From assembly GCA_902763905.1 (NCBI GenBank), contig CACWUA010000001.1, positions 11 to 64,010 of the forward strand: 64,000 bases of DNA. The letters are read 5' to 3'. The notes below the pieces were generated by a model. That model was not told the DNA's origin. It worked only from the letters and a program-made list of their open reading frames with translations, and did no database searches. The number at the start of each line of letters is the position of its first letter. The stretch's first letter is position 1. Below are positions 5,707 through 35,738 of the stretch, piece after piece. Made by a program: the position numbers and the translations under genes. This DNA comes from an uncultured Pseudomonadota bacterium (GTDB lineage Bacteria > Pseudomonadota > Alphaproteobacteria > RF32 > CAG-239).

Positions 5707-8421
5707 ATGAGTAAAGTTTGCCTGATTGATGGTTCCGGATATATTTTTCGTGCTTTTTATGCCCTACCCGCCATGACCTCACCCGATGGGACTCCGGTTA
5801 ATGCCGTTTACGGCTTTATTACAATGTTTATGCGGCTTTTGAAAAATATTCCGTGTGATTATTGTGTGGTGCTTTTTGATGCCAAACGGCAGAATTTTCG
5901 CAATGATTTTTTTACCGAATATAAAGCAAACCGCGCCGAAATACCGGAATTGCTGATTCCGCAGTTTGATTTAATACATCAAGCTGTGGAATTAATGGGA
6001 TTGCCTTATGTGATGCAAGAAGGATATGAAGCTGATGATTTGATTGCTACTTACGCACGTCAGGCTCTAGATTCGGGTAAAGAGGCCGTGGTGGTTTCGG
6101 CAGACAAAGATTTAATGCAGCTGATTCGTTCGGGAATTACTTATTATGACGGTATGAAAGATAAATTTTACACATCGGAAGATGTTAAAGAAAAATTTGG
6201 CGTATATCCTGATAAAGTCGTAGATGTACAAGCACTTTCCGGTGATAAAATCGATAATATTCCGGGTGTGCCCGGTATCGGTCCAAAAACCGCTGCCGAA
6301 TTGGTGAACGAATATGGTTCATTACAGGGAGTGCTGGCTAACGCCGATAAAATTAAGCAGCAAAAACGCCGCGAATTGCTGATTTCTCATCACGACGATG
6401 CCGAAATTTCTCTTAAATTGGTTACGCTGAAAAATGATGTTCCGGTTGAACATAATTTGGAAGAATTTAAGTGCAAGGCTCCGCAAAACACAAAATTGTT
6501 GGAATTTATTGATAAATACGGTTTTAAAAGTATTCGTCCAAAGCTGGAAAGATGGATTAATGACCGTTGCAATGAGGTTGGAGCCGAACCGGTACTGCAG
6601 CAATCAGAACCGGAGCCGCAAACTCATTATACCAAAATAGAAAATCGCCGGCAATTGGAAGAACTTTACAAAGAAATTAAAAGAGCCGGACAGATGGCAT
6701 TTCAGACAATGTTTGACGGTCAAAAAACAGTAGGAATCAGTATAAGTCCGCAAGTTTATACGGCTTATTATTTACCGATTCCGAACCAAGCAATCGGGAC
6801 GGATTTGTTTGCTTTTGACAACATTCAGATAAGAGATATGGATTTTGTTGCGGTAAGCAATTTTTTGCAAGCGGTTTTGAATGATAGATATATCTTAAAA
6901 ATTGCAGCAGATATTAAAGCACAGTGGCATCGTTTAAATATGCTTTGCGGAAAAAGAATGAATTTATGGCCGTATGATGATTTGGCAATAATATCATATG
7001 ACTTGGATTCTTCGGAGCATGAGCACACACTTCCGGTGCTGTCGAAAATGTTCTTGGATAAATCATTGGAGGAGCCGAAATCTTCTTCGCGCCGCGAAAT
7101 AATCAATTTTGAAGCGGAAGAAAATGGCGAATATATTTATGCTGTTGCCGATTACGCTTCGCGTCTTTATCCTCTGCTTAAAGAACGTTTATTGGTTGAG
7201 AAAAAGAATTATGTGTATGAATGCATTGATCGCCGTCTGGTCGAGGTTTTATTGGATATGGAAGATGCCGGCATAGTGGTCAACGATAAAACTTTATTGG
7301 AACTCGATGCCGAATTTGAAAAACAGCTGAATCTCATAGAAAAAGATATTTTCGAATTGGCCGGAGAAGAATTTAATATCAGCTCTCCGGTGCAAATAGG
7401 ACATATTCTGTTTGAAAAAATGGGACTTAAAGGCAAGAAAACCACCACCGGACGTTATAATACCGGTGCCGAAGTTTTGGAACAACTGGCGGATGAATAT
7501 GAAATTGCCGCCAAAATTTTGGAATGGCGCACCTATGCCAAACTAAAATCGACTTATACTACCTCGCTGTTGGAAGCACGCGATTCGCATAATCGGGTTC
7601 ACACAACTTTTTCGCAAATCGTTGTTAATACGGGACGCTTGGCATCATCAAATCCCAACTTGCAAAATATTCCGAACCGCACAGATATAGGTCGCCGGAT
7701 TCGCGCATGTTTTGAGGCACAAAAAGGTTATAAATTGGTTGCCGCCGATTATAGCCAGATGGAGCTACGTTTGATGGCTTCGGTTGCCGGCGTAAAAGCT
7801 TTAAAAGAAGCGTTTGCGGACGGTGTTGATGTCCATGCGGCAACGGCAGCGCGGGTGTTCGGGGTGGCACCGGATAAAGTTGATCGTGAGCATCGTACTC
7901 GTGCCAAAGCCATAAACTTCGGTATCATTTACGGGATATCGCAGTTCGGTTTAGCCAAACAAATCAATGTATCGCGTGATGCGGCTAAACAATACATCGA
8001 TTCGTATTTTACCATTATGCCGGAAGTCAGGAGTTTTATGGATAAAACCATAGAGTTTGCCCATCGTTACGGTTATGTGGAAACGCCGTATGGGCGTAAA
8101 TGTTCGGTACCTGACATAAATAACCAAAATCATAGATTATCTTCGTTTGCGGAACGTGCAGCCATTAATGCTCCGATACAAGGCGGAGCGGCCGATATCG
8201 TAAAGCTGGCAATGCAAAGGATTGCCGCTGCTCTCAAAGAGAGAAATTGGGATGCTCGTTTGTTGTTGCAAGTGCACGATGAACTTGTGATAGAGGCAAA
8301 AGAAGACATAGTACCTCAAGTTTCCGCGCTGCTAAAGCAAATAATGGAGGAAACAGCAGATACCGCTGTAAAAATGGTGGCGGAAGTGGGAAGCGGCAGC
8401 AATTGGAATGATGCACATTGA
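5707..8421 (+). CDS. polA: DNA polymerase I
   Basis: 5'-3' exonuclease domain (LIDGSGYIFRAFYA), a 3'-5' exonuclease-like region and a family A polymerase domain (RRIRACF..ADYSQMELR..QVHDELV). An AGGAGA RBS precedes the ATG at 5707. Confidence 0.92.
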   Translation: MSKVCLIDGSGYIFRAFYALPAMTSPDGTPVNAVYGFITMFMRLLKNIPCDYCVVLFDAKRQNFRNDFFTEYKANRAEIPELLIPQFDLIHQAVELMGLPYVMQEGYEADDLIATYARQALDSGKEAVVVSADKDLMQLIRSGITYYDGMKDKFYTSEDVKEKFGVYPDKVVDVQALSGDKIDNIPGVPGIGPKTAAELVNEYGSLQGVLANADKIKQQKRRELLISHHDDAEISLKLVTLKNDVPVEHNLEEFKCKAPQNTKLLEFIDKYGFKSIRPKLERWINDRCNEVGAEPVLQQSEPEPQTHYTKIENRRQLEELYKEIKRAGQMAFQTMFDGQKTVGISISPQVYTAYYLPIPNQAIGTDLFAFDNIQIRDMDFVAVSNFLQAVLNDRYILKIAADIKAQWHRLNMLCGKRMNLWPYDDLAIISYDLDSSEHEHTLPVLSKMFLDKSLEEPKSSSRREIINFEAEENGEYIYAVADYASRLYPLLKERLLVEKKNYVYECIDRRLVEVLLDMEDAGIVVNDKTLLELDAEFEKQLNLIEKDIFELAGEEFNISSPVQIGHILFEKMGLKGKKTTTGRYNTGAEVLEQLADEYEIAAKILEWRTYAKLKSTYTTSLLEARDSHNRVHTTFSQIVVNTGRLASSNPNLQNIPNRTDIGRRIRACFEAQKGYKLVAADYSQMELRLMASVAGVKALKEAFADGVDVHAATAARVFGVAPDKVDREHRTRAKAINFGIIYGISQFGLAKQINVSRDAAKQYIDSYFTIMPEVRSFMDKTIEFAHRYGYVETPYGRKCSVPDINNQNHRLSSFAERAAINAPIQGGAADIVKLAMQRIAAALKERNWDARLLLQVHDELVIEAKEDIVPQVSALLKQIMEETADTAVKMVAEVGSGSNWNDAH

Positions 8422-8441
8422 CAAATCCTTGTTTTATTGAC

Positions 8442-8471
8442 CAAATCGGCAATAAAATACTAAAATGTAAC
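8442..8471 (+). promoter_or_regulatory. Putative sigma70-like promoter (TTGACC-18-TAAAAT) for the Cys-rich protein gene
   Basis: A -35-like and a -10-like hexamer with 18-nt spacing lie ~75 nt upstream of the ATG at 8545. This is a sequence-pattern call only. Confidence 0.25.
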
Positions 8472-8544
8472 AAAAAATTCACATTTCTTCTTTAAAAAGT
8501 ATGTTACACTTATGATGTGGGGATATGTTTAAAGGAGAAATAAA

Positions 8545-10326
8545 ATGCGTATTAAGATGAATATGTCTCGATGTATAGGAGGCATGGCTGTAATGGCTTT
8601 ATGGTTTGTTACGGCCGTATATCCGGCGAGGGCAGACGTCTGCTTTTTGCCGACGGGAATATGTGAGCAAGGAGTTACCACCAAAAACGACACCGCCCAG
8701 TGCACTTTGAATCTCAGTATTTACAAGAGTGCGCCGGTAGAGGGCAAAAAGTGTACAAAAGTCGAGGTTCCCGGGTGTCCGACGGTGTATGAATGTTTTG
8801 ATGACAGCTGCGATGCCCGCGGTTATAAGATCAAAGGCACCACCAGTCAGACTACCTACCCGAACAGTTATAATCCGAATACTTGGACCTGTAACAGTTG
8901 TTTGCAGGGTAAGACGTATTTTTGGAATTGTACTCCGAAACCTTGCTCTAGAGGTACCACCAAAGCCAAAGCATCTTGTGCGGCCGGTTATGAGTGGCAA
9001 GCTCAGAATGATTACGGAATGTCCGGTAATGATAAATGCGGAACTTGCGTTATGAGCAGCTGTCCGTCCGGAACAACTTCGGCTCCGGCCAGCGGATGTC
9101 AAATTTGCGAAGTTAGCAGCAGACTGGTAAATGGCACTAAGTGTTACAAATGCCACAGCATGTCAACTGATTATAAAACTCAAACGCAGATTGACTCTAC
9201 ATACAGAAGAAACTTAGCCGGTTCTTGCTATCACTTTAATTCCAAACAAGCAGCTGACAACACAGTATGTTACAATGTTACGGAAAGTGAATGCGGCACT
9301 GATCAATACAAAGGTAAAGCAACCGTCAACGGCCAGATGGCTTGTCAGTGCGTTAATTATGCATACACTTTTGTAACAACAGACGGCAAAGAAGAAGTCA
9401 ATCTTAATTTTCCGGCAACCGGCGGTACTAGCAGTGTAGGGATAAGTTCGGCAAGGAGTGCTACATATTATGGCGGTGGTTTCAGTGAAGGAATTTATTT
9501 TTCGTCTCGAAATACTGAAGGCAGCGGTTTAAGTGTTAGCACATCTGGTAACGTAACAACAATATCCGCTCCTAAAAATGAGGATCAAACCACGGATAAA
9601 ACTTATACCGTACAACTTATCCAACAGTATTCAAACAAAGTAATTACCATCCATGTAAAAGTGGCTCATGATGCTTGTCCGAATGATTATAAATTTGATG
9701 ATAAATGTGAGCAAACCGGTTGGAGAACAAAAACCGATAACAGAACATCTACCACTGGTAAAGCGTGCTATAAGTGCTATAATGATAATTGCTCGACAGG
9801 GTTTACCAAGGGAACAACTCCGACTAACGGCAACTATGATACCGAGACAACACCGTATGGCTCTAACTGCTATAAAGCAAAGCCGGATGATTGCCCGAGC
9901 GGATATACCAAGGGTTCAACTCCGCTGCCGACAAATCACTATAACACCAGCACCACGCCATTTGGTAGCAACTGCTATCAGCAGATATCGGATGATTGCA
10001 CATACGGTTCTCTGAATCCGGGGTACTGCCCGTATGGCCGGAGTTATGTAGGTAAATCAACTTTAGGCAATGATTGCTATGAATGCGATTCGCCGTCTTA
10101 TTGGTGGGATGACGATGACGACGATGACGACGACGATGACGATGATGATGGTTGCCCAGCCGGTGAAACAATGACTACACACGCAGGTTGCTGTAAATGG
10201 GGTGAATTATATCATACTAGTGGATATTATAGCTGCTGCGAGTGCGGTTCAGATTCCGATTGCCCTAGTACAGGCATCCATGGTACGTATATTGGATGTG
10301 TCGGTTGTGAATGTGAGGGCTATTAA
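8545..10326 (+). CDS. Secreted Cys-rich, Thr/Ser-rich repeat protein with a poly-Asp(14) tract (no recognisable family)
   Basis: An AGGAGA RBS lies 7 nt upstream. The N-terminus is signal-peptide-like (MAVMALWFVTAVYPARA|DV). The protein has more than 60 Cys and internal repeats (TTPYGSNCYKAKPDDCPSGYTKGSTP / TTPFGSNCYQQISDDCTYG). A D14 run is followed by a Cys-dense C-terminus. Confidence 0.6.
   Translation: MRIKMNMSRCIGGMAVMALWFVTAVYPARADVCFLPTGICEQGVTTKNDTAQCTLNLSIYKSAPVEGKKCTKVEVPGCPTVYECFDDSCDARGYKIKGTTSQTTYPNSYNPNTWTCNSCLQGKTYFWNCTPKPCSRGTTKAKASCAAGYEWQAQNDYGMSGNDKCGTCVMSSCPSGTTSAPASGCQICEVSSRLVNGTKCYKCHSMSTDYKTQTQIDSTYRRNLAGSCYHFNSKQAADNTVCYNVTESECGTDQYKGKATVNGQMACQCVNYAYTFVTTDGKEEVNLNFPATGGTSSVGISSARSATYYGGGFSEGIYFSSRNTEGSGLSVSTSGNVTTISAPKNEDQTTDKTYTVQLIQQYSNKVITIHVKVAHDACPNDYKFDDKCEQTGWRTKTDNRTSTTGKACYKCYNDNCSTGFTKGTTPTNGNYDTETTPYGSNCYKAKPDDCPSGYTKGSTPLPTNHYNTSTTPFGSNCYQQISDDCTYGSLNPGYCPYGRSYVGKSTLGNDCYECDSPSYWWDDDDDDDDDDDDDDGCPAGETMTTHAGCCKWGELYHTSGYYSCCECGSDSDCPSTGIHGTYIGCVGCECEGY
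10108..10149 (+). repeat. (GAY)14 trinucleotide microsatellite encoding poly-Asp
   Basis: Fourteen consecutive GAT/GAC codons lie inside the Cys-rich protein gene. Confidence 0.85.
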
Positions 10327-10380
10327 TCTCAATCAGACAGGTTAATATACCCAATCCATAATCAGGTACAAATATAAAAC

Positions 10381-10411
10381 AAAGGGAGGTGGTTTTATCC
10401 TCCCTTTTTTG
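10381..10411 (+). terminator. Rho-independent terminator (GGGAGG-loop-CCTCCC followed by T7)
   Basis: A 6-bp GC stem with a 9-nt loop followed by TTTTTTT, directly downstream of the Cys-rich protein gene. Confidence 0.7.
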
Positions 10412-10459
10412 TTGCATCTTGCGGATTCTTATGCTATACACCTCATCTGAGGTATAAAC

Positions 10460-11032
10460 ATGGCTGATGATGATAAATATAAAAGATGTCCGGAATATTG
10501 TCCGTTTTTGAAGGCTAACGGCACGTTTTGTGAATTGTTTCGCCGACCGCTGCAAACTGTTCAAGGAATATCACAAAAATGCGAAGAATGTAAAAATCCG
10601 GAACAGCGTAAAAGTTCTTATAAAGCACTCGGATTGTCTGTAGATGCTCGTGAACAGATATGGCAAAAAGCAATCTTGAAATATAACGAGATAGAACTGG
10701 GTAAAAAACGTGAAGAAGAAGGTGTGCGCAAAAAATTTGCGGCTCTTTTGGAAGATAAATACGGAGCACGTCCTCCGCTTGAAGGTAATGCGTTCTTAAA
10801 GAATTTGATAATCAATCTTTATATGGTGCTTGATGCCACCGAGCGCAGTATGATGGCGGCCATCTTAAACGGGCGCAACGGCGATAGATTGATTGAAGCC
10901 ATTGAACGTGCGCCCAAAGATGAAACTTTACTGCGTAATTTTCGCCGTGAACTTGATGGGCAATTTCAAGAGCATCAGCTGGAAATTAAACGAGAACAGC
11001 AGCAAAGAGACAATATAAATCAGCGTATTTAA
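10460..11032 (+). CDS. Hypothetical protein with an N-terminal Cys cluster (zinc-ribbon-like) and a charged coiled C-terminal half
   Basis: The ORF is 190 aa and a GAGGT Shine-Dalgarno lies 5 nt upstream. The N-terminus reads CPEYC..C..C-x2-C. No family was recognised. Confidence 0.45.
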   Translation: MADDDKYKRCPEYCPFLKANGTFCELFRRPLQTVQGISQKCEECKNPEQRKSSYKALGLSVDAREQIWQKAILKYNEIELGKKREEEGVRKKFAALLEDKYGARPPLEGNAFLKNLIINLYMVLDATERSMMAAILNGRNGDRLIEAIERAPKDETLLRNFRRELDGQFQEHQLEIKREQQQRDNINQRI

Positions 11033-11094
11033 AATATTTGTTGTATTTTTGTCAAATTGGTTTATAATCTATATAAATCAAAGGAGCAATGATA

Positions 11095-13023
11095 ATGACA
11101 GTTGAGACATTACTTACCAGAACCAAAGACAATTGTGTTATCGCATTTACCGTTTACTTTGGCAATGCGGCTGAAAAAACGCGCTTAAAACACGAGTGCG
11201 AAAACTTGTGCCGAAACCTGAATTATAATGAGTTTAACAGCAATATGCTGCGCTCGCACGGGATATCCTTTGATGCCGACAATACCAATTTTTTACACAA
11301 AGAAATTTCCGGATATCATTATCGCAAAGACCGTGCAAACTTTCGTAATGATATGCGTACCGATCCGCCGGCACAAACAAACACGTTGTCCCTATCCTAC
11401 CGGCTTACCGATGATGAATTTCCGGAGATGTTAAAGAATCTCGGTTTTAAAATCACACCGGTTGATAAGGCGTATAATGTGCGCTATAATCCTTCTCAAG
11501 GAAAGTTTGAGGCAGAAAATTTTGTAAGTACTACAGCAACTGTTTATTCAGATGACCGTAAAATAGAAATAGTCCGTAATCATTTTCGTTTTTCGAGTGC
11601 CGATTATCGCCGCTTAAACGAACTAAAAAATGATTTTTTTAATGCAAGGCAAAGCAATCCGCACTTAAGCATGTCATCTTATGTAAGCGCAATTCCGGAT
11701 TTACGCGACAGAGCCTTATTTGATTTTTATGCCCGCGAAAAAAGTAAAGTGGACAATCGCCGGACGACAATAGCTCACGAAATCAAGCATATTAAAAACG
11801 CTGTGTTACGAGACGGTTTAAACCTTAAGTCAAATAACAAACGCTTAAGCGTTGAAAATTATTACCGTATTGCCGTAGAAAACGAGCGTAGTGCGTATTT
11901 AGAAGAACTTGTGCAGAATATTAATGAGTATTTGCAAAAAGGTAATTATAACGATTTTTCGATGTTTTATGTTAATAATGCGGATTTTGTTGCTGAGCTG
12001 AAGCGCTTGCGTACACCGGCCGAACGTTTGGCATACGTGCGAAATTGGCCGCAATTGCTGGCAGTAAAAATGCGTGATTTTAACAGTAATTATTTGGATA
12101 AATACTTTAATCAGTTTAAGCAAATAACCGAATCGAGTATTGAAAATGCACCGCTCAATGCGCAGCCTGACAATGACGATGCAGAGTTCAAAAAATTGCG
12201 CTCGCTATTTTATAATTATCAGATTTATAATCCGGCGTCACATAGTATGGAATCCGTGAATTTGGCGGATTATCTTACTGCTGATTTGGAGATAAGTATC
12301 AATGATAGAGTGCGTCGTGAAATTATTGAACCGCAGCAAAATTGTTTGAATAGGCAGTTAAGCGATTTTGCCAGCGATAAAGCTGCCGGAAACATAAATC
12401 CGGAATTGATTGAGCCGGCAAAAGCACTAATGCGCGGAGGATTGCAAAGCAGCGAGTTTATAAACGAAGTGGATAATTTTCGTGTCTCTTCTTTGTATGA
12501 AGATGATGGTAATTCATTTCCGCAGCCGACAGCACCGTCGATTCCCAGCGATCATGCTCAATGGAGCAACAATTTGCAGCAATATTGGAGTAATACTGTC
12601 GGATATACCGAACTCGCCAAGAATAATGAAGAATATAAGTTTAAGATTAATGGTGCAACAGTACGGTACTCTTCGGATAAAGATGTTCAGGTTAGTCAAA
12701 ATGCAAATTACCAGTTGTATGTCAAGTTATTGAATGAACCGAGCAAACAGAATGCTCCGATTGAATTTTTGGAGACGCTGCGCAAAGAACAAAAACTGCT
12801 TCTTTATATTGCCTGTATCAATAACGGACGCAAACCTATCGGAGCAGTTCCGACAGATTTTTCGGATATTGAAAATTTGCAAGGCATAGCTCCGGCAGAA
12901 ATAAATAAATTCCGCCATCGGATGCAGCAACAATCAGGTGCGGCTCAAAATGCCAATGCGCAAAGCACTCAAACTCGGGCTCAAAAGATGTGTATGCAAA
13001 AGACTATGCAAAATACGCGCTAA
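11095..13023 (+). CDS. Hypothetical 642-aa protein with an HExxH..E (gluzincin-like) motif and no signal peptide
   Basis: TIAHEIKHIKN contains an HExxH motif, and ENERSAYLEE ~35 aa downstream is a candidate third zinc ligand. The C-terminus is Gln/Asn/basic-rich. The ATG at 11095 was chosen because it lies 9 nt after an AGGAG Shine-Dalgarno, whereas the ATG at 11089 is too close to it. Confidence 0.5.
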   Translation: MTVETLLTRTKDNCVIAFTVYFGNAAEKTRLKHECENLCRNLNYNEFNSNMLRSHGISFDADNTNFLHKEISGYHYRKDRANFRNDMRTDPPAQTNTLSLSYRLTDDEFPEMLKNLGFKITPVDKAYNVRYNPSQGKFEAENFVSTTATVYSDDRKIEIVRNHFRFSSADYRRLNELKNDFFNARQSNPHLSMSSYVSAIPDLRDRALFDFYAREKSKVDNRRTTIAHEIKHIKNAVLRDGLNLKSNNKRLSVENYYRIAVENERSAYLEELVQNINEYLQKGNYNDFSMFYVNNADFVAELKRLRTPAERLAYVRNWPQLLAVKMRDFNSNYLDKYFNQFKQITESSIENAPLNAQPDNDDAEFKKLRSLFYNYQIYNPASHSMESVNLADYLTADLEISINDRVRREIIEPQQNCLNRQLSDFASDKAAGNINPELIEPAKALMRGGLQSSEFINEVDNFRVSSLYEDDGNSFPQPTAPSIPSDHAQWSNNLQQYWSNTVGYTELAKNNEEYKFKINGATVRYSSDKDVQVSQNANYQLYVKLLNEPSKQNAPIEFLETLRKEQKLLLYIACINNGRKPIGAVPTDFSDIENLQGIAPAEINKFRHRMQQQSGAAQNANAQSTQTRAQKMCMQKTMQNTR

Positions 13024-28333: not shown

Positions 28334-30547
28334 TTAGGCTTGTGGAGCGTCCATCTCGAAACCTTCGCTGTCATCCTCCTCGGCGTTGTATTCAATACCC
28401 AATTTGGCCAGCATATCGTCATTGATATCTTCACGCTGTGCCACCACCCAATCCGGCACGTTGGCACACGGCGGGAGTTTAGCCAGTTTAGTCATCTTCT
28501 TATCCAAATACCAACGCGGCGAATCGGCAATAATCGGCCGGTCAATATGACTTTGCATCAGTACCACTTGCTTTAACATCGGCAAACTCAAAAGTTGAGT
28601 CGAGCTGATTACCGGAATACCTTGCAGCTGGTAGTTAACGTTTTTCGCCAGCGGGTTAAAGTCTTTACCAAGTGAACCTTCCGTTCGCGAGAACGAAGAA
28701 ATACGAACAGTCTTGTTTCCTATCATCTTAGAGAAACGCTGTGCCGTAACCTCGTTGTTCTGCGAAAGAATAACTTTGCAGGCGGTAGTAGAAATCACCG
28801 TTTCCAAGTCATCTTTTCCGTATTTACCGGAAATTTGCCCCAAGTCTTGTCCGATTAGGAGGTACGACACTTTTTGACCACGACCTACGGCCGGTCCGTC
28901 AATAATGGCCTTCATTTTCGGCATTTGCGGAAACTCGTCGAGCACAAACAGGGCAGGGAACGGTCCCATTTTGCCGTCGGTACGGTTGACGTGATTCGGC
29001 GGATTGGAAATCAGATAAGAGCTCATCAATTCAATAAAGGTCGAACTGATAACGCCCAAAGCGCGCGCATCAACTTGGTTAACCGACAAATACACAGAAA
29101 TAGGCTTCCATTCACCGGTAATCGGGTCTTTCATACCGCGCAAATCCTTAAATTGCAAATCGGAGAAACTGGTACGCGCCTTAACCGCTTGGTTCTTAAA
29201 TACGTTAATACCGGCAAATGCCGTAGAAAGAATGGAACCGCGCTCCTTATCCGGCGTGTTACTCAAAGTACTCAATTCCGTAATACAGCGCTGAGCATAA
29301 CCGTAGTTGCGAGCCTCTTTGATAGCTTCTTCCAACATATCGTGCGTCGGGTCAGCCATTGCCGCCATTTGATCGCCTTCATCCAAACGACGTTGAATTT
29401 CTTGTGCCGCATTAATTTGCGCCTCAGTAATCCATTCCATAATCATGGCAATGCAGGCTTCACGCCCCATCCACCTTGACGGTAGCAGATTCCACGTACC
29501 GATTGGCAGATAGTTTTCCATGGTTAAAGTGCCGTTTTTTAAGTTTTGAATGGCACGCGGAGCTCCCGGATCACGCATATCCTGATAATATCCTTCAAGC
29601 ACTTCTTTGTCTTTTTCATCAAGTTTGCCCTCATAGATGCGACCGATAAAATAGTCGTTGGCGCGGGCGCGATCACACTTTGAAACCACAAATTGAATAA
29701 ATCCGGTTAAGGCTGCACGGCCGGTTTGTGACCAGTGCGGGTCGGCACCGCCTTTCGGATCTTCTACCAAAATATTGCACATGGAATCCACATACATATC
29801 GCGATCCGGCCCTTGTTCCGGAATACAATTCGGCGACAACGGATTCCAGCTTGGATAATAAATACCTTCACTCGGGTTATCTTCCGCACCCCAGTTAATG
29901 ATAAATACCGGCCCCACCTTGGCACGTGCACCGGAAGTTTTGTAACAAAGCTCCGGTTTCGGGTCATTAATCACCAAACTCAAGCCCTCCGAGTGGAAAA
30001 TCGTCGGCATCACCACACCCACGGTTTTACCGGTACCAGGAGGCGCACAGCACAGGGTTGCCAATGTTTCTTTCAAAAGCAAAAACTTGCCGTCAAATTT
30101 TCCCACCACTTGGCAGAAACCGTCAAATCCCAATAATGGCATCTTTTTTATATCGCGCAAATCGGCAATTTTGGCTTGACCTTGATAGTTGACTTGGAAT
30201 TTGTACGGACTGAAAATGGCACTGATGATTATACCGAGTGGAATTGTTATAAAAGGCAGAAGAGGAATCCATAAACTTAAAGAAAATGGTCCGCGGTGAT
30301 TCCATAATTGTTTCCACCATCTTCCATACATTGTAAACAAATGATTAGGATCATGCATAATAATTGTTAAAAACTTCTGTACCACGGTTGTTGACGACTT
30401 AGATAACCCATGACCTACAACATAAGAAAGAGGTAGACTGAAGATAAATAAGATTATGGTGAGACCTATGCAAATAAACAATGTTATCAACATCCATCGA
30501 ACGGCTTTGTCATATTCTTTCCATTCTTCACCACGATCGTTGGCCAT
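28334..30547 (-). CDS. virD4: Type IV secretion coupling protein VirD4/TraG family ATPase
   Basis: Two N-terminal TM helices, a Walker A (CCAPPGTGKTVGVVMPT), the TraG/VirD4 core and an acidic C-terminal tail (EEDDSEGFEMDAPQA). Confidence 0.85.
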   Translation of the reverse strand: MANDRGEEWKEYDKAVRWMLITLFICIGLTIILFIFSLPLSYVVGHGLSKSSTTVVQKFLTIIMHDPNHLFTMYGRWWKQLWNHRGPFSLSLWIPLLPFITIPLGIIISAIFSPYKFQVNYQGQAKIADLRDIKKMPLLGFDGFCQVVGKFDGKFLLLKETLATLCCAPPGTGKTVGVVMPTIFHSEGLSLVINDPKPELCYKTSGARAKVGPVFIINWGAEDNPSEGIYYPSWNPLSPNCIPEQGPDRDMYVDSMCNILVEDPKGGADPHWSQTGRAALTGFIQFVVSKCDRARANDYFIGRIYEGKLDEKDKEVLEGYYQDMRDPGAPRAIQNLKNGTLTMENYLPIGTWNLLPSRWMGREACIAMIMEWITEAQINAAQEIQRRLDEGDQMAAMADPTHDMLEEAIKEARNYGYAQRCITELSTLSNTPDKERGSILSTAFAGINVFKNQAVKARTSFSDLQFKDLRGMKDPITGEWKPISVYLSVNQVDARALGVISSTFIELMSSYLISNPPNHVNRTDGKMGPFPALFVLDEFPQMPKMKAIIDGPAVGRGQKVSYLLIGQDLGQISGKYGKDDLETVISTTACKVILSQNNEVTAQRFSKMIGNKTVRISSFSRTEGSLGKDFNPLAKNVNYQLQGIPVISSTQLLSLPMLKQVVLMQSHIDRPIIADSPRWYLDKKMTKLAKLPPCANVPDWVVAQREDINDDMLAKLGIEYNAEEDDSEGFEMDAPQA

Positions 30548-30563
30548 TTTGCTTTACTCCACT

Positions 30564-32081
30564 TTATTTTATGTTTTTCAAAACGTTGCGTATATTATCC
30601 AGTTGTTTTTTAGTTACTTTTTCATCAGCCTCGCTGAGAATCTTAGAAAACAGCTTAATTTCCTTCGGTGCACCGCGATTTATGCGTGTAACCTCAATTC
30701 CCATTTCGTTCCATATATCAAACATATCATCAGCATTAATAATATTTGCCATTTGAATAATCACACATGAAGTGATTTTTTGCTCAAATTCGTTTTCATC
30801 GAGTGCGGTCTCAATCAGCTTTTTCACATTATTAAGCTTACAAACCGGTGAAACACGATGACTGCTTTCAGAGAACCACAACGGCTCTTCTCCGTTAAAC
30901 ATCTCCTCATCGGCCAACCAATCACCGCTTTCTTTATCGACTAAACATAAGTAGATATCATTTTGTGAAACACCGACAAAGTCAATAAGTGTACCTTTAA
31001 CCGAAATATTGGTAATAACATCATAATTCTTTTGCAACAATGTTTCATAAACCGGACTGCGTGGCGTATCATTTGTTTTGTTATCCGAATTTCTGGAGCG
31101 CCGTTCACTGCTTCTCTCTTCGTCATCGGTATCACGCTGACGTGAACTGCGCCTAGATGTTTCATCAGATTTACGCGAAGATTTGCGCGAAACTTTATCT
31201 CTGTTGTCGCGTCGATTCGCACGCGGTGATTCAAAGTTTTCTTCATCTTCATCATTATCTTCGTCGTCATCATCATCAAAGTCGTATTTCGGCTTGGAGT
31301 GTTTACTCGGCTGGTTGATTTTCTCTTCATTATCATCCGAATGTTTTTGGGATTTTCTCTCGTTTGTCGGTTTTTTCTTTCCTATATCGGCTTTTTCAAA
31401 GGAGTCGATATCCAAATCGAAATCATCATCATCGTCATCGTCAAATTTGAATAATGCGTGGTCAATTGTGGCGGCCACATCAGTCTTTTTCTTAGCCGTA
31501 GCCGGAGCCGGCGACTGAGCTACCATCGGAGCCGCATAAGACGAACCGGCAACTGCTGCCGCCATCGGTGCGGAAGTAGCCGAATTGCCGTAATCGGAAA
31601 TAGGCACTCGCAAAGTATTAATTCCCGTCGGTCGAATCAACTTATATGATTTACGTTTAACCACTCCATAGCGGTTATTGCCTGTAGATACCGACGAAAG
31701 AGGCGACTTGTCGCTATATTTTTTATAGAGTGTATACGGAAGCTTTATTATATTCCATATAACTTCTTCCCAAGCCACCATGCATAGTGTCCACCAACCG
31801 GTAATCAGCATCGGGAAAAATACAATCATTAAAAGAATAAATGCCCACTCTTTAGGCGCGCGCGGAATCCAACCCGCTTTCCATGTTGTAGCGAATTGAT
31901 GCCAATGATCAGGCCAGAAAATATCAAAATGCCAATTACACAGCATAATTACGCGAATACCCTCTGTGAAGACAATCCCCCACAGGCATCCGACAATTAG
32001 AATTCTAAGAAATACCAATATGGATTTCAACTGCGCACTCCGTAAATTTGCCAATACACTCACTATATTAATAGCACTCAA
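30564..32081 (-). CDS. Hypothetical two-TM membrane protein with poly-Asp/Glu and Arg-Ser-rich disordered tracts (DotM-like position and topology)
   Basis: The ORF is 505 aa and its stop lies 16 nt upstream of the virD4 start. It has two N-terminal hydrophobic helices, low-complexity D7/D5EDNDEDEE and SRKSSRKSDETSRRSSRQRD tracts and a ~150-aa C-terminal globular region. Confidence 0.55.
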   Translation of the reverse strand: MSAINIVSVLANLRSAQLKSILVFLRILIVGCLWGIVFTEGIRVIMLCNWHFDIFWPDHWHQFATTWKAGWIPRAPKEWAFILLMIVFFPMLITGWWTLCMVAWEEVIWNIIKLPYTLYKKYSDKSPLSSVSTGNNRYGVVKRKSYKLIRPTGINTLRVPISDYGNSATSAPMAAAVAGSSYAAPMVAQSPAPATAKKKTDVAATIDHALFKFDDDDDDDFDLDIDSFEKADIGKKKPTNERKSQKHSDDNEEKINQPSKHSKPKYDFDDDDDEDNDEDEENFESPRANRRDNRDKVSRKSSRKSDETSRRSSRQRDTDDEERSSERRSRNSDNKTNDTPRSPVYETLLQKNYDVITNISVKGTLIDFVGVSQNDIYLCLVDKESGDWLADEEMFNGEEPLWFSESSHRVSPVCKLNNVKKLIETALDENEFEQKITSCVIIQMANIINADDMFDIWNEMGIEVTRINRGAPKEIKLFSKILSEADEKVTKKQLDNIRNVLKNIK

Positions 32082-32108
32082 ATATTAAAAAAGTGAATAT
32101 ATTTTTCG

Positions 32109-32585
32109 TTAATTGTTCGATTCTTGTATTTTCTCAATAATTTCTTTGCGAAAATCAGTAACATTTTCGGATTTGGTTTTTTTCTTTTCTTGATCAAGCC
32201 TCTCCTTAATGAACTGATCCAACGATTTTTTTTCTTCTATTTTTAAGTTTTTGATATTAACATCGGGAGCCACATAGCCGTCAAACCCGCTGTTAAAGAT
32301 TTTGTTGAGCGGCACCGTCAGTAATTTCATATACTTAAAGTGATATAATTTATACCAACCGTAAAAACAAAGCGGCACCACTGATAAAACCATTGCAATG
32401 ACAATTAAATCCTTGCCCTGCAAGACATTTCCTCTGTTCCAAAAGTTGGACAAACTGCGATAGAACACCGGCGGCGTGGTATGATAAACCAATAGTATAA
32501 TGAGCTGTACCAAGCCGGCCAGAATGGCCATCCACAAAACACAGGCAACTAACACGCAAATAAAATGAAAAAACTTTTTAATCAT
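32109..32585 (-). CDS. Hypothetical small membrane protein (2 TM) with a charged C-terminus
   Basis: The ORF is 158 aa with two hydrophobic helices and sits in the same operon, 27 nt upstream of the next gene. Confidence 0.45.
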   Translation of the reverse strand: MIKKFFHFICVLVACVLWMAILAGLVQLIILLVYHTTPPVFYRSLSNFWNRGNVLQGKDLIVIAMVLSVVPLCFYGWYKLYHFKYMKLLTVPLNKIFNSGFDGYVAPDVNIKNLKIEEKKSLDQFIKERLDQEKKKTKSENVTDFRKEIIEKIQESNN

Positions 32586-32652
32586 CAGCGGCCTTCTCTT
32601 GTACCCTGCGGTCTGATTTGCTGCATCTCATGCTTTTTATTTATGCGGTTTT

Positions 32653-34695
32653 TCATCCTATCGAGATTAATTTTGCGTTTTTTGTTATTCTCTTTGCTTG
32701 CGGCGTTTTGTTCTTTTTTCCTTCAATATCTCTATCCCATTGCTGTTCTTTTTTATGTCCGGAATTTTCCTCTCGTGCCGCTTCATCCGGTCCCATTTTG
32801 GTGGATTTCTTCGGTTTATTGTTACCTTGCACTTGCGCTCGCTCTCCTTCGCTGGGTGTGCGGTAATGATTGTAGAACTTATCAAACTCGACTTCCTGCG
32901 CTTTCATCTGCTGTTCCAGAACTTTTTTCTTGGCCGGATCTTGTTCGGTATGGTATGCACATTGCAAATCTCTCAGAGTCTTACCCTCACAACAGATATC
33001 TGCATAATATCCACCCAATTCTTTTGCCGCCGAATTGGCAATCTTAAGTTTTTCTTTAGGCGGGATTTCGGCATCCGGAGCAAGATGATGCTCAACTCGA
33101 TAATCATTTTCTTTTTGCTTAAATATGACTGAGGTTGTTTCCATCATATCAAACATTTTAATCAATGTTGCTTTCTGAACATAAGCTGCGGCCTCAGCAT
33201 TGCCGTCCAGCTCTTTATCCGGATTTTTTCGAACATATTCATTGGTCGCAAGATGCGCACACAATTTGACCAAATCATTCTTTTTGCCGTCTTTATGGAT
33301 AGGAAAAACAGTTTCCAATTTTTGGGGATCCTTTTCCAATTCTGTAATTTTTTGCATAAAATAACCCTTATCGGAGGCAAAAATCTCATTCATGGTTTCG
33401 GCAAAATTTTGATGTATTTTCGGATCAAATACCACAAACGGCACACCTTTTTGCGGAGCGCCGATAACAGGCTGCCATTTGTCCGGATTTTTGCCGATAT
33501 TGTTTTGAATGCAGCGCAGCATCGGTTGTAATCTTTGCGGATTTTTCATCAAGTCTCCGAATTTATCGACAAAGTCGGCGCGAGTAGCATCAGCCAGTCG
33601 GCTCATTTGCTGCGCAAAAGCGTTAGCTTCCGGCGAAAGCTCAACCGCAGCGGCATTTTGAGGGCTATTACCACTGTTGCCGGCTTTACCAGCAGCTTTG
33701 GCCGCAGCAGAAGTTCTAACCGGAGCTTGTCCTTCTCCGCATAAATAATCCAAACCGGTATCAAGTGTCTTAAATGCTTTTTGCATAACATAGTTAATTA
33801 AACCGAGAAACCAAACGTTATAAAGGTATTGAATTAAATCTTGTTCTTTTACCGGATCAAAATTAAAATCACCTTTTTTACCGCGTTCGGAATCGCGTTT
33901 AGAATCTTCGAGTTGAGCTGTATTTTCCGCTTTTTCATCGTCATTCGGCTTGTTTTCCGGCGGAGTTTCAGCTGAGATATTGAGTTTGTTGCCATCAGCC
34001 GAGAAATTTAATGTATCTGCCTCATTTTCTGGCAATCCTCCCATTCTTATCGGTTCCGATTCGGATTTTTGTTCTTCTGTGCTCTGATTCAATCCTGACT
34101 TTTTTAAGGATTCATTCAGCGCATTTTGCAAAATAAAAGATTTTTTTGCCAAATCCTTATATTTAAGGCTACGTGGTTTGGAGGCATCAACTGCATTAGC
34201 CGCTTTACTTAAAACTTCATCATAATCCAACTTTGCCAATGTTTCGGAAATATCTATCATCACATTGCTGTTTTTATCAAGCAGTTCCAGAGTGTTTTTG
34301 TCTTTAATGCGTTTTTGCTTAAATTCGGCGGCGTACGTATTAAGCGCAACAATTGTCATAATATTTTTGCCGCTTTGCGGATTCTTTTCCGTTAAAAATT
34401 GTACCATTTGCTCGTTGCTTATTTTTCCATCTTCATTAAGCTCTTGCATGGCTTTTAGGGCATTTTTGATACCTGTCAGATTCTGGAATCCGAGTTTTTT
34501 GGTTTCCTCTTTACTCCCGTTCGGAATAGGAGCAGGAAAGATCGCGGCTTTCAGAGCATCGGGCAAATGACCGATACCATATCTAAGCATACCGGCTTTT
34601 ATCAGCTCCATGTCCATATTTACTTCTTTATTCAATTCTGCGCAGAAGAGTTTAAAATCATCAGCTTCATTTGCATTTTTTATATCTTCAGCCAT
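32653..34695 (-). CDS. Hypothetical 680-aa soluble protein, acidic and Lys-rich, no recognised domain
   Basis: Long ORF on the same strand within the virD4 operon. It has no TM segment and no known motifs; codon usage is consistent with its neighbours. Confidence 0.55.
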   Translation of the reverse strand: MAEDIKNANEADDFKLFCAELNKEVNMDMELIKAGMLRYGIGHLPDALKAAIFPAPIPNGSKEETKKLGFQNLTGIKNALKAMQELNEDGKISNEQMVQFLTEKNPQSGKNIMTIVALNTYAAEFKQKRIKDKNTLELLDKNSNVMIDISETLAKLDYDEVLSKAANAVDASKPRSLKYKDLAKKSFILQNALNESLKKSGLNQSTEEQKSESEPIRMGGLPENEADTLNFSADGNKLNISAETPPENKPNDDEKAENTAQLEDSKRDSERGKKGDFNFDPVKEQDLIQYLYNVWFLGLINYVMQKAFKTLDTGLDYLCGEGQAPVRTSAAAKAAGKAGNSGNSPQNAAAVELSPEANAFAQQMSRLADATRADFVDKFGDLMKNPQRLQPMLRCIQNNIGKNPDKWQPVIGAPQKGVPFVVFDPKIHQNFAETMNEIFASDKGYFMQKITELEKDPQKLETVFPIHKDGKKNDLVKLCAHLATNEYVRKNPDKELDGNAEAAAYVQKATLIKMFDMMETTSVIFKQKENDYRVEHHLAPDAEIPPKEKLKIANSAAKELGGYYADICCEGKTLRDLQCAYHTEQDPAKKKVLEQQMKAQEVEFDKFYNHYRTPSEGERAQVQGNNKPKKSTKMGPDEAAREENSGHKKEQQWDRDIEGKKNKTPQAKRITKNAKLISIG

Positions 34696-34775
34696 TAAAG
34701 TATCTCCTTCAAAGCAACTTGATTTTTATTAATTGTATCATAAAAAAATGTTTTTGTCCACAACTATTTCTTTGC

Positions 34776-35738
34776 CTAAACTTTTACTTTTTTCATAAAT
34801 TTACCGATTTCAATATTGACGCGAATGCCATCTTTGGGAGTAACCTTTACCAATCCGAAAAAACGCGGTTTTATTTTGGCAAATTCAATCGGGGCAAAAA
34901 TTGCCGGATTGGTGGTTAGAGCCTTAAATGCGCCGTCAACATCTTTTTGTGCCACACGGAAATAATTGCTGACAAGGCGTTCGGCATCTATCGGAAAATT
35001 TTTTTTCTTTACGGCTTCAACCAAACGTTTTTGACGTTCTTTGCGTTCTAAATATTCTTCATAAAGCATTCGTTTTATGTGTTTTTCCTGATATTTAAGC
35101 AATTTAGCCTGATAAGTCAGTTCACAGCTTTCCATGTCAATCAAGATCTCGACATACGAGATTACGGCTAATTGCAAGTCCTGATCGCGTAAAGTCTCGG
35201 CAAAATTCAAAAATTCTTCATCGGTGGCAGAAACGTTAAATCCACCGACACTGTCCGGATAAATCTCACGCAATACATTCCAGCCGGCAACTAAGTCAGT
35301 CGCCAATAAATGTCCTATACTAGGTTTATAGTTCGGGTACAAAAAATCAATTTCAAACTCCCAGTTTAATGAAGGTATACTCTTGGCCGCACAAATCTTA
35401 TCAATAGAACCGCGATAATTTATATAAGCCTGCGCTAATTCGGATTCTTCACTTCTCAATTCTGGTTTCTTTTCTTCATCTTCAATAACTGTGCGAGCCT
35501 GCTCAAAAGTTTCAGCCAGTTCTTTTTCAAATGCATCTGAAGCGGCATCGTTTTCCGTCTGTCCTTGCTGACTCAAAGCCGGTTCTTCCGGTTTTTCTGC
35601 CGGTGCGGTTACAGCGGTTTCATCATCTTCCTCTAAATCATCAACTTTAGAGTTAATAAAGCTGTTTAAAAGCTTTTCAAAATCATCACCTTGGCTAAAT
35701 TCATTTTCATCACTCATAAAATCAGTACTCCTTTGCAA
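34776..35738 (-). CDS. Hypothetical 320-aa protein with a strongly acidic N-terminal third
   Basis: First gene of the minus-strand operon, divergent from rluD. No recognised domain. Confidence 0.5.
   Translation of the reverse strand: MQRSTDFMSDENEFSQGDDFEKLLNSFINSKVDDLEEDDETAVTAPAEKPEEPALSQQGQTENDAASDAFEKELAETFEQARTVIEDEEKKPELRSEESELAQAYINYRGSIDKICAAKSIPSLNWEFEIDFLYPNYKPSIGHLLATDLVAGWNVLREIYPDSVGGFNVSATDEEFLNFAETLRDQDLQLAVISYVEILIDMESCELTYQAKLLKYQEKHIKRMLYEEYLERKERQKRLVEAVKKKNFPIDAERLVSNYFRVAQKDVDGAFKALTTNPAIFAPIEFAKIKPRFFGLVKVTPKDGIRVNIEIGKFMKKVKV

Follow-up and report, generated by a model that had tools for sequence, protein, structure and literature searches.

What role should be assigned to a cysteine-rich protein that belongs to no recognised family and carries an uninterrupted run of 14 aspartates? 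The question is raised by a gene at 8545..10326 (+) in a 64,000-nucleotide (nt) stretch (the window) of contig CACWUA010000001.1, assembly GCA_902763905.1, from an uncultured alphaproteobacterium of lineage CAG-239. A first-pass annotation made from the sequence itself had described a secreted, repeat-bearing product and proposed for it either a surface-adhesin or host-interaction role or that of a metallothionein-like metal buffer. We arrive, with moderate confidence, at an exported, multi-domain, all-beta protein stapled by disulfides, a representative of a very small uncharacterised family so far met only in uncultured ruminant-gut Alphaproteobacteria. For its function we favour, to a similar degree, an elongated and hypervariable structural coat protein or adhesin, probably surface-exposed, in which the aspartate run (D14) would serve as a spacer.

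By several comparisons the gene is real and intact. Its open reading frame (ORF) runs from ATG to stop with exactly the start, end and length (593 amino acids, aa) that the first-pass annotation had given. A search of 5.8 billion protein clusters recovered nine relatives, and a profile search of 1.84 billion representatives recovered 44 at E <= 1e-3, 20 of them at E <= 1e-30. About 35 cysteine columns are invariant in homologues that are only ~40% identical, and the identical 593-aa protein, D14 included, is found on at least four contigs of 50-200 kb whose record names point to cattle rumen metagenomes; judged from these invariant columns and identical copies, the features of the protein are not the product of chance. 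Against the nearest strain (loci L001 and L020) the ratio of nonsynonymous to synonymous divergence (dN/dS) of the gene body is 0.26, which clearly indicates purifying selection, though the ratio lies above those of polA (0.11), PBP1A (0.08), dnaJ (0.04) and bipA (0.015) against the same strain.

The family to which the protein belongs is undescribed in the libraries and literature that we searched; hypervariable exported repeat proteins as such are well known in bacteria. Pfam returned no family for the 593-aa protein at E values up to 10 and NCBIfam a single noise match (13.7 bits against a cutoff of 240), and searches of both with 24 family members and 6 long members gave isolated sub-threshold noise only. 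Neither the protein nor 24 relatives matched a PDB sequence, the window held no Rfam match, and no description of the family was found in the literature and supplements searched. The earlier statement that no family could be recognised thus holds against Pfam, NCBIfam and PDB sequences. We define this orphan "CFLPTG-N-terminal Cys-rich" family by a signal peptide, the motif [IV]CFLP[TS]GxC, a cysteine framework in the N-terminal domain and an immunoglobulin-like (Ig-like) domain, all of which are present in the 593-aa protein and invariant in alignments A1 and A2. All six loci from species-representative genomes (6/6) are in rumen metagenome-assembled genomes (MAGs) labelled as Alphaproteobacteria or Proteobacteria, from goat, sheep and cattle, and the named cluster members are likewise from Alphaproteobacteria MAGs. 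A phage or plasmid origin was considered and rejected, there being no relatives on viral contigs or plasmids. It is a multigene family whose members have an upstream element in common and lack a conserved partner gene.

We derived the domain layout from the alignment, two AlphaFold models and fold searches. The first 30 residues (MRIKMNMSRCIGGMAVMALWFVTAVYPARA; 8545..8634, +) form a predicted signal peptide, recognised by hydropathy and the AxA rule and conserved in all orthologues. Its basic n-region (R2, K4, R9) precedes a hydrophobic core spanning roughly residues 10-26, and A-R-A occupies positions -3/-1 ahead of D31 as the predicted signal peptidase I (SPase I) site. This layout, judged manually and conserved in the family, fits the secreted status and Sec-type signal peptide proposed at first pass. 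At the predicted mature N-terminus stands the hallmark of the family, the invariant motif D-V-C-F-L-P-T-G-I-C-E-Q-G (aa 31-44; 8635..8676, +), which is 79-86% identical, in contrast to 23-53% in the remainder of the protein, and which, in the majority of the full-length members recovered, sits 1-5 residues past the predicted point of cleavage; it may serve as a handle for anchoring or sorting. The motif is joined through a short, variable linker (aa 45-57) to the N-terminal Cys-rich domain (aa 58-272; 8716..9360, +), whose 21 cysteines lie in stacked beta-hairpins with CxxC...CxxC pairs. This domain is confidently modelled and matched no solved fold. It is followed by a Cys-free Ig-like beta-sandwich (aa 273-375; 9361..9669, +), modelled with 8-9 strands at a predicted local distance difference test score (pLDDT) of mostly 80-93, and the most divergent folded part of the protein (23-33% identity to orthologues). 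Fold searches with the full-length model gave weak Ig-like matches only, to the SbsC surface-layer (S-layer) protein (E 6.5e-4), titin, cadherins and a small Bacteroides domain; the match to 2mqc has a template-modelling (TM) score of 0.67. These generic matches disappear when aa 58-272 are searched alone, and the Ig-like domain is the sole source of fold matches.

Beyond the sandwich lie Cys-rich tandem repeats (aa 376-516; 9670..10092, +), four units of ~34-36 aa with the pattern DDC-P-x-G-Y-T-K-G ... T-T-P-[YF]-G-S-N-C-Y. Between the two best copies, at aa 414-447 and 448-482, identity reaches 56% in the protein and 67% in the DNA; the two outer units are degenerate, and the internal DNA repeat of the gene has 70% identity. 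Two near-identical repeats of ~45 aa had been described at first pass; tandem repeats do exist, but with a period of 34-35 aa and an identity of 56%. The number of units differs between homologues. Short family members (409-434 aa) extend from the signal peptide through the Ig-like domain only, which makes the N-terminal part a constant core and the C-terminal part expandable; long members reach 2425 aa through added repeats and other Cys modules. A disulfide-rich fold prediction with AlphaFold had been proposed as a check, and the models give a confident all-beta fold, but not for the N-terminal motif (pLDDT < 50) or the C-terminal tail (pLDDT < 40).

The cysteines of the protein were overestimated at first pass, where more than 60 were reported: the count is 47 (7.9%), of which one belongs to the signal peptide, alongside 42 Tyr, 12 Phe and 8 Trp. 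They include eight CxxC motifs, several spaced CxxC-x11-CxxC. The 46 cysteines of the mature protein fall in even numbers in every segment (2, 22, 12 and 10), and an even mature count is found in 34 of 48 family sequences (binomial P ~0.003, from sequences that are non-independent and in some cases fragments). The repeat unit occurs in 2-Cys and 4-Cys versions, often adjacent within one protein, and the two extra cysteines are gained or lost together: 11 units have both, 20 have neither and one is discordant (Fisher 9e-8). The paired gain and loss and the even counts argue for disulfides rather than metal clusters. The pairing of cysteines is thus supported, and from it we infer a disulfide chemistry.

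The second property that sets the gene apart is its divergence. In every syntenic genome pair, PolA, orf190 and MnmE are 80-88% identical, whereas the Cys-rich protein is 39-52% identical. We placed the boundaries of this hotspot by blastn against loci L002, L004 and L006. In L002 and L004, DNA identity of ~76% extends without interruption from PBP1A across polA and the intergenic region into the gene, whose first ~130 nt it includes; L006 has a different upstream gene, and there similarity is limited to the promoter region and the same first ~130 nt. In all three, similarity ends at 8672-8686 (about codons 43-47), right after the CFLPTGICEQG motif, is undetectable for ~1.7 kb, and returns at 10370-10409, at the terminator. 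These limits define a hypervariable cassette (8687..10369, +), from about codon 47 to just 5' of the terminator, without detectable DNA similarity to the syntenic loci. The variability covers the entire mature protein. Two closer orthologues, P0002 and P0003, are 96% identical over 83 nt upstream and have an overall dN/dS of 0.21, and their synonymous divergence (dS) rises from 0.3-0.5 in the N-terminal half to saturation in the C-terminal third. Between the window and L001 (300-10326), dS is 1.12 in dnaJ, 0.65 in bipA, 0.47 in PBP1A, 0.26 in polA and 0.14 in the Cys-rich gene; this steady fall toward the gene suggests a recent recombination tract over the right-hand side.

The pattern fits alleles of long-standing divergence that are exchanged by homologous recombination in the conserved flanks, and not a burst of positive selection on point mutations. 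In this it resembles the flagellin central domain, pilin, and O-antigen or capsule loci, which likewise show a sharp drop in DNA similarity amid conserved synteny, a mosaic dS, and, as a matter of general knowledge, conserved 5' and 3' ends able to serve as recombination arms; unlike at those loci, the product here is an unrelated protein, and recombination is read from pairwise comparisons. Diversity-generating retroelements (DGRs) are recognised by a template repeat close to the region that varies, with a reverse transcriptase nearby. A DGR or silent-cassette mechanism was rejected: the window holds no second copy of any segment of the gene besides its own tandem repeat, and there is no reverse transcriptase among the neighbours (polA, two unknown ORFs, mnmE). 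With no template repeat and no reverse transcriptase, a DGR is not involved. The conserved-variable-conserved locus would also make a handy strain-typing marker for these organisms.

The D14 tract (aa 522-535; 10108..10149, +) is present as first described, uninterrupted ahead of a Cys-dense C-terminus, and is encoded by mixed GAT and GAC codons. Comparison of its length between strains, which the first-pass annotation had proposed, reveals variation: the full-length allele of the nearest strain (P0064 at L020; identical to the L001 fragment) has D10, an in-frame difference of 12 nt with identical flanks. Acidic runs in the other members of the family do not exceed 5, and at this point the orthologues are unrelated in sequence. 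In a paralogue from the MAG of the nearest strain (L008; 775 aa, 6001-8328) the equivalent place, between the last repeat (LGSQCYIC vs LGNDCYEC) and small Cys-dense modules, is occupied by poly-Ser runs of 12, 16, 68, 7 and 15 that use all six Ser codons. The mixed codons of both homopolymers suggest selection on the amino-acid run rather than plain DNA slippage. Because of the D10/D14 polymorphism and the poly-Ser at the equivalent position, we read D14 as a probable flexible polyanionic spacer, a homopolymer linker of strain-variable length and not the functional core. It shifts the net charge of the mature protein from ~-6 to -20, so that incidental cation binding is likely, yet as no conserved function. 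The emphasis first placed on this lineage-specific tract is therefore not sustained; the tract is of minor importance, and what makes the gene interesting is its family, with the new domain and the N-terminal motif, together with the hotspot and the shared cis-element.

Three side observations concern such tracts. In the L008 paralogue, from the MAG of a close relative, the poly-Ser runs separate duplicated 30-aa Cys modules (CDISSSDCGNCYYFNSDLCRCIYSPSAC). The goat-rumen MAG contig JAFSWL010000049.1 (L001/L007) ends 27 nt 5' of the D tract, whereas a longer contig with the same allele (L020) continues across the tract, which is D10 there; assembly difficulty at the GAY repeat or strain heterogeneity probably accounts for the break. 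Within the window, a 505-aa ORF (30564-32081, -) with N-terminal hydrophobic segments carries D7 and DDDDDEDNDEDEE around 31240-31443, inside a long charged low-complexity region, and the Cys-rich protein is thus not alone in this genome in having poly-Asp.

The tail that follows (aa 536-593 with the stop codon; 10150..10326, +) is lineage-specific and holds 10 cysteines, and the Cys-dense strings quoted at first pass are found at aa 549 and 585. The nearest strain retains 48 of its 58 residues and all ten cysteines (10/10), with a dN/dS of 0.53, and on the strength of this retention the tail is genuine and Cys-constrained, yet fast-evolving. We also considered whether the tail is a degenerate form of the C-terminal module of the homologues (G.WG..C..D.DC..SSD[YF].L.C...C.EC), with D14 an expansion of an acidic motif. 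This was unsupported: a hidden Markov model of 11 such modules scores the tail at -0.4 bits, only "SDSDC" is in common, and none of the alternative frames at the C-terminus encodes the module.

Taken as a coat protein or adhesin, the molecule would be exported by Sec and its signal peptide cleaved after Ala30. Its 46 mature cysteines would then form ~23 disulfides, giving a rigid, protease-resistant and elongated molecule. The invariant N-terminal peptide DVCFLPTGICEQG could provide a constant end for tethering or sorting, and the distal parts, from the new Cys-rich hairpin domain and the Ig-like domain through the 34-aa Cys repeats and the D14 linker to a terminal Cys-knot, would present an exposed, variable end in contact with the environment. 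Old, highly divergent alleles would be swapped by homologous recombination through the conserved leader and terminator, perhaps under diversifying or frequency-dependent pressure from phages, protists or competitors. The D14 spacer would drift in length between strains, with any binding of Ca2+ or Mg2+ incidental. The putative surface or host-interaction role first proposed for the protein fits the divergence pattern.

Several points weigh against this reading. The alignments behind the AlphaFold2 models were shallow, with 10 and 24 sequences. An exposed protein rich in disulfides fits awkwardly with the strongly reducing conditions of the rumen. Neither pairwise nor sliding-window dN/dS exceeds 1, so that positive selection is not demonstrated and was set aside as the cause of the divergence, and the high divergence could in part reflect relaxed constraint at non-Cys positions. 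Pfam, NCBIfam and motif checks found no outer-membrane anchor and no autotransporter, type I secretion system (T1SS), type IX secretion system (T9SS) or lipoprotein signal, and the protein may for this reason be retained in the periplasm or released. In particular, the two libraries gave no autotransporter, T1SS-RTX, T9SS-CTD or PEP-CTERM domain in either the 593-aa protein or the long homologues.

Two conventional anchoring signals were tried and rejected. A lipobox closes the signal peptide with the consensus [LVI][ASTVI][GAS]C; in the members inspected, the first mature cysteine follows an AxA SPase I site and is preceded by I, V or L. A sortase signal consists of a C-terminal LPXTG followed by a hydrophobic segment and a basic tail, whereas FLPTG has LPTG without the x and lies at the mature N-terminus. 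The protein lacks a hydrophobic segment at its C-terminus, the best 19-aa hydropathy window being the signal peptide.

Of the alternatives, a decaying pseudogene or spurious ORF, whose D14 and odd C-terminus would come from a frameshift or assembly error, could appeal to a C-terminus that has no match to the homologues' module and is 70-270 aa shorter, and to the related MAG contig that breaks shortly before the D tract. Yet the other frames are stop-filled and hold nothing resembling the homologues' C-termini, at least four contigs carry the identical protein, a second strain has the same Cys-retaining tail with an in-frame D10, and the Shine-Dalgarno sequence, promoter element and terminator are all conserved. 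The other frames and the nearest-strain tail rule out frameshift or truncation as the source of the C-terminus; with no frameshift and the gene-body dN/dS given above, the protein is not the pseudogene that the first-pass annotation had named as its own refutation, and we consider that explanation effectively refuted. Hardly more credible is a metallothionein-like or cation buffer, in which CxxC, CC and CxC groups would bind soft metals and D14 would bind Ca2+ or Mg2+. The eight CxxC motifs, several in a zinc-ribbon-like CxxC-x11-CxxC spacing, the polyanionic D14 with a mature net charge near -20, and a tail with 10 cysteines in 58 aa speak for it. Metallothioneins, however, are ~20-30% Cys with few or no aromatic residues, and use their cysteines as metal-thiolate ligands. 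The protein here shares their CxxC, CC and CxC clusters and differs in being low in Cys (8%, not ~30%), rich in Tyr and Trp, predicted to be confidently beta-folded and exported, and in cysteines that are even in number and covary in pairs. It matched no metallothionein or other metal-binding family, and D14 is absent from all other members, with D10 in the nearest strain and poly-Ser instead in the paralogue. The metal buffer proposed at first pass is therefore very improbable.

A more serious competitor, though we consider it unlikely, is a soluble secreted or periplasmic factor in place of an adhesin or coat attached to the cell. Such a factor might be an effector, toxin or binding protein, rich in disulfides and directed against rumen ciliates, fungi or competing bacteria, or else a periplasmic binding or scaffold protein. 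The protein has a signal peptide, yet no recognisable anchor or outer-membrane secretion signal, and small disulfide-rich modules and fast evolution are, as general knowledge, also typical of secreted effectors. The type IV secretion system (T4SS) coupling protein and several unknown ORFs in the window hint at an interactive lifestyle; a Sec substrate would not use a T4SS. Two features tell against a soluble factor, neither of them decisively. A strictly conserved N-terminal peptide beside a hypervariable body suggests one tethered end, and lengths up to 2425 aa, repeat arrays and Ser- or Asp-rich linkers are more typical of cell-surface fibres. More speculative, and in our estimate improbable, is that the family is a bacterial counterpart of the variant surface proteins (VSPs) of protozoa, that is, a set of dispersed, disulfide-stapled coat proteins built on an unseen Cys-rich beta-hairpin fold. 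In such a system the common promoter-proximal element and an N-terminal anchoring peptide would accompany a hypervariable exposed body, and co-regulated or alternating expression together with recombination would evade rumen phages, protists and host factors.

This last comparison is by analogy with the Giardia VSPs and the surface antigens of Paramecium and Tetrahymena, which appear similar in being exported, rich in CxxC, Thr and Gly, encoded by multigene families, and composed of a conserved end and a hypervariable body. Such proteins would make up a coat that resists proteases in gut-like surroundings. In contrast to them, the family here is bacterial, has no C-terminal transmembrane anchor and has its conserved end at the N-terminus; there is no sequence relationship, the likeness being one of composition and CxxC spacing only. 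Pfam, its VSP and Paramecium surface antigen families included, gave no match at E values up to 10 for the window protein or 0.1 for the 24 members, and at permissive thresholds neither Pfam nor NCBIfam matched Giardia VSP, ciliate antigen, furin-like, EGF-like or Myxococcus Cys-rich repeats.

Two groups of bacterial surface proteins offer partial parallels to the coat or adhesin that we favour. Ig-like surface and S-layer proteins (SbsC, Big-domain adhesins) share a signal peptide, an all-beta architecture, one Ig-like sandwich and a variable number of repeats. Their likeness is weak, confined to one domain of ~100 aa (E as above, TM <= 0.3 against multi-domain targets), and they offer nothing comparable to the Cys-rich domains that account for most of the protein; no SLH, Big or other Pfam domain is found in the 593-aa protein. 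Gram-positive Sdr and serine-rich repeat adhesins likewise have a strain-variable acidic or Ser stalk between modules (here D14/D10, with poly-Ser of up to 68 in the paralogue). Unlike them, the family has homopolymers and not SD dipeptides, occurs in a diderm alphaproteobacterium and has no C-terminal LPXTG, and the tracts are far shorter in the window protein.

Little is understood of the uncultured Alphaproteobacteria of the rumen. This Cys-rich family is among their most rapidly diversifying exported products, and a strong candidate for the molecule with which they meet phages, protists, plant surfaces and the host. Its N-terminal Cys-rich domain is a good target for structure determination, being confidently modelled without a match to any solved fold, and the CFLPTGxC peptide could point to a route, so far unrecognised, by which diderm bacteria tether or sort proteins.

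The family also shares a DNA element upstream of its genes. In the window this is the 22-nt AAAATGTAACAAAAAATTCACA (8462..8483, +), an imperfect palindrome TGTAA-N8-TCACA located ~65-80 nt 5' of the start codon and conserved in alignment A3. An exact 16-mer of it occurs once per locus in 11 loci, always 5' of a family gene; that of L012 has it despite a protein identity of 24% and a different genomic context, and a close variant precedes the L008 paralogue and the first L016 gene. The positions are 7921-7936 in L002, 5882-5897 in L012, about 5917-5940 in L016, and 5' of 6001 in L008. Within the 64-kb window the element has a single match, even with up to 3 mismatches. It lies ~20 nt 5' of the extended -10 in orthologues and is centred ~40 nt 5' of the likely transcription start, which suggests a candidate shared promoter or regulator-binding site; such a site might reveal a regulon.

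The remaining expression signals agree with what had been proposed at first pass, namely a putative promoter of the gene's own and a strong terminator. A consensus scan finds a promoter-like region TTCACA-16-TATGTT (8478..8510, +), and the extended -10 of the orthologues, TGCTATAAT, aligns with TGTTACACT at 8502-8510 in the window; both are consensus matches only. The Shine-Dalgarno sequence AGGAG (8533..8537, +) lies 7 nt 5' of the ATG and is conserved in orthologues. Downstream of the stop codon, hairpin folding identifies an intrinsic terminator, AGGGAGG / CCUCCCU with a 9-nt loop followed by U6 (10383..10410, +), the GC-rich core of which (GGGAGG-9nt-CCUCCC) has a folding energy of -14.2 kcal/mol (z -3.2). 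The same sequence is present in L020. A consensus terminator scan missed this hairpin because its loop exceeds 8 nt.

The surroundings of the gene are those of an ordinary chromosome, with the order bipA, dnaJ, PBP1A, polA, Cys-rich gene, two unknown ORFs, mnmE, mnmG, a PHP protein and rsmG. The two unknown ORFs, orf190 (10460-11032) and orf644 (11089-13023), are syntenic with the Cys-rich gene in all orthologous loci. The former has an N-terminal CxxxC...CxxC cluster and is 84-88% conserved; the latter is fast-evolving (57-65% identity), carries an HEIKH (HExxH) motif, and has no signal peptide and no Pfam or PDB match. Both are absent near the paralogues in L008, L012 and L016, and for that reason we do not treat them as partners, nor adopt the reading that the three genes form a functional operon; as the genomes are also closely related, the synteny of the trio is probably inherited gene order. 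The paralogues instead neighbour SecDF and succinyl-CoA ligase (L008), DnaK and AhpC (L012), and SufBCD (L016).

Locus L016 carries a long and a short family member in tandem, at 6001-9780 and 9922-11205. The short form (427 aa) has a predicted C-terminal amphipathic helix, SGVRATIGRAIVNGFNSFKSLFE, also found in P0017, which could be a membrane-association segment without counterpart in the window protein. In two distant sequences, P0038 and P0050, a Cys repeat of the same type (..G.xCYxC..DxCPxG..) follows a prepilin-like leader, G|RSMVEMLGVIG, with Glu at +5. We considered this leader as a sign of display on fibres and set it aside as a lead only, NCBIfam having given no pilin match. Elsewhere in the window, a block with reversed GC skew (28334-35738, -) contains the T4SS coupling protein (VirD4/TraG family, E 7e-57), followed by three ORFs (505, 680 and 320 aa) for which Pfam gave no match. 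This block might represent an effector or accessory cluster of a T4SS, or what is left of a mobile element.

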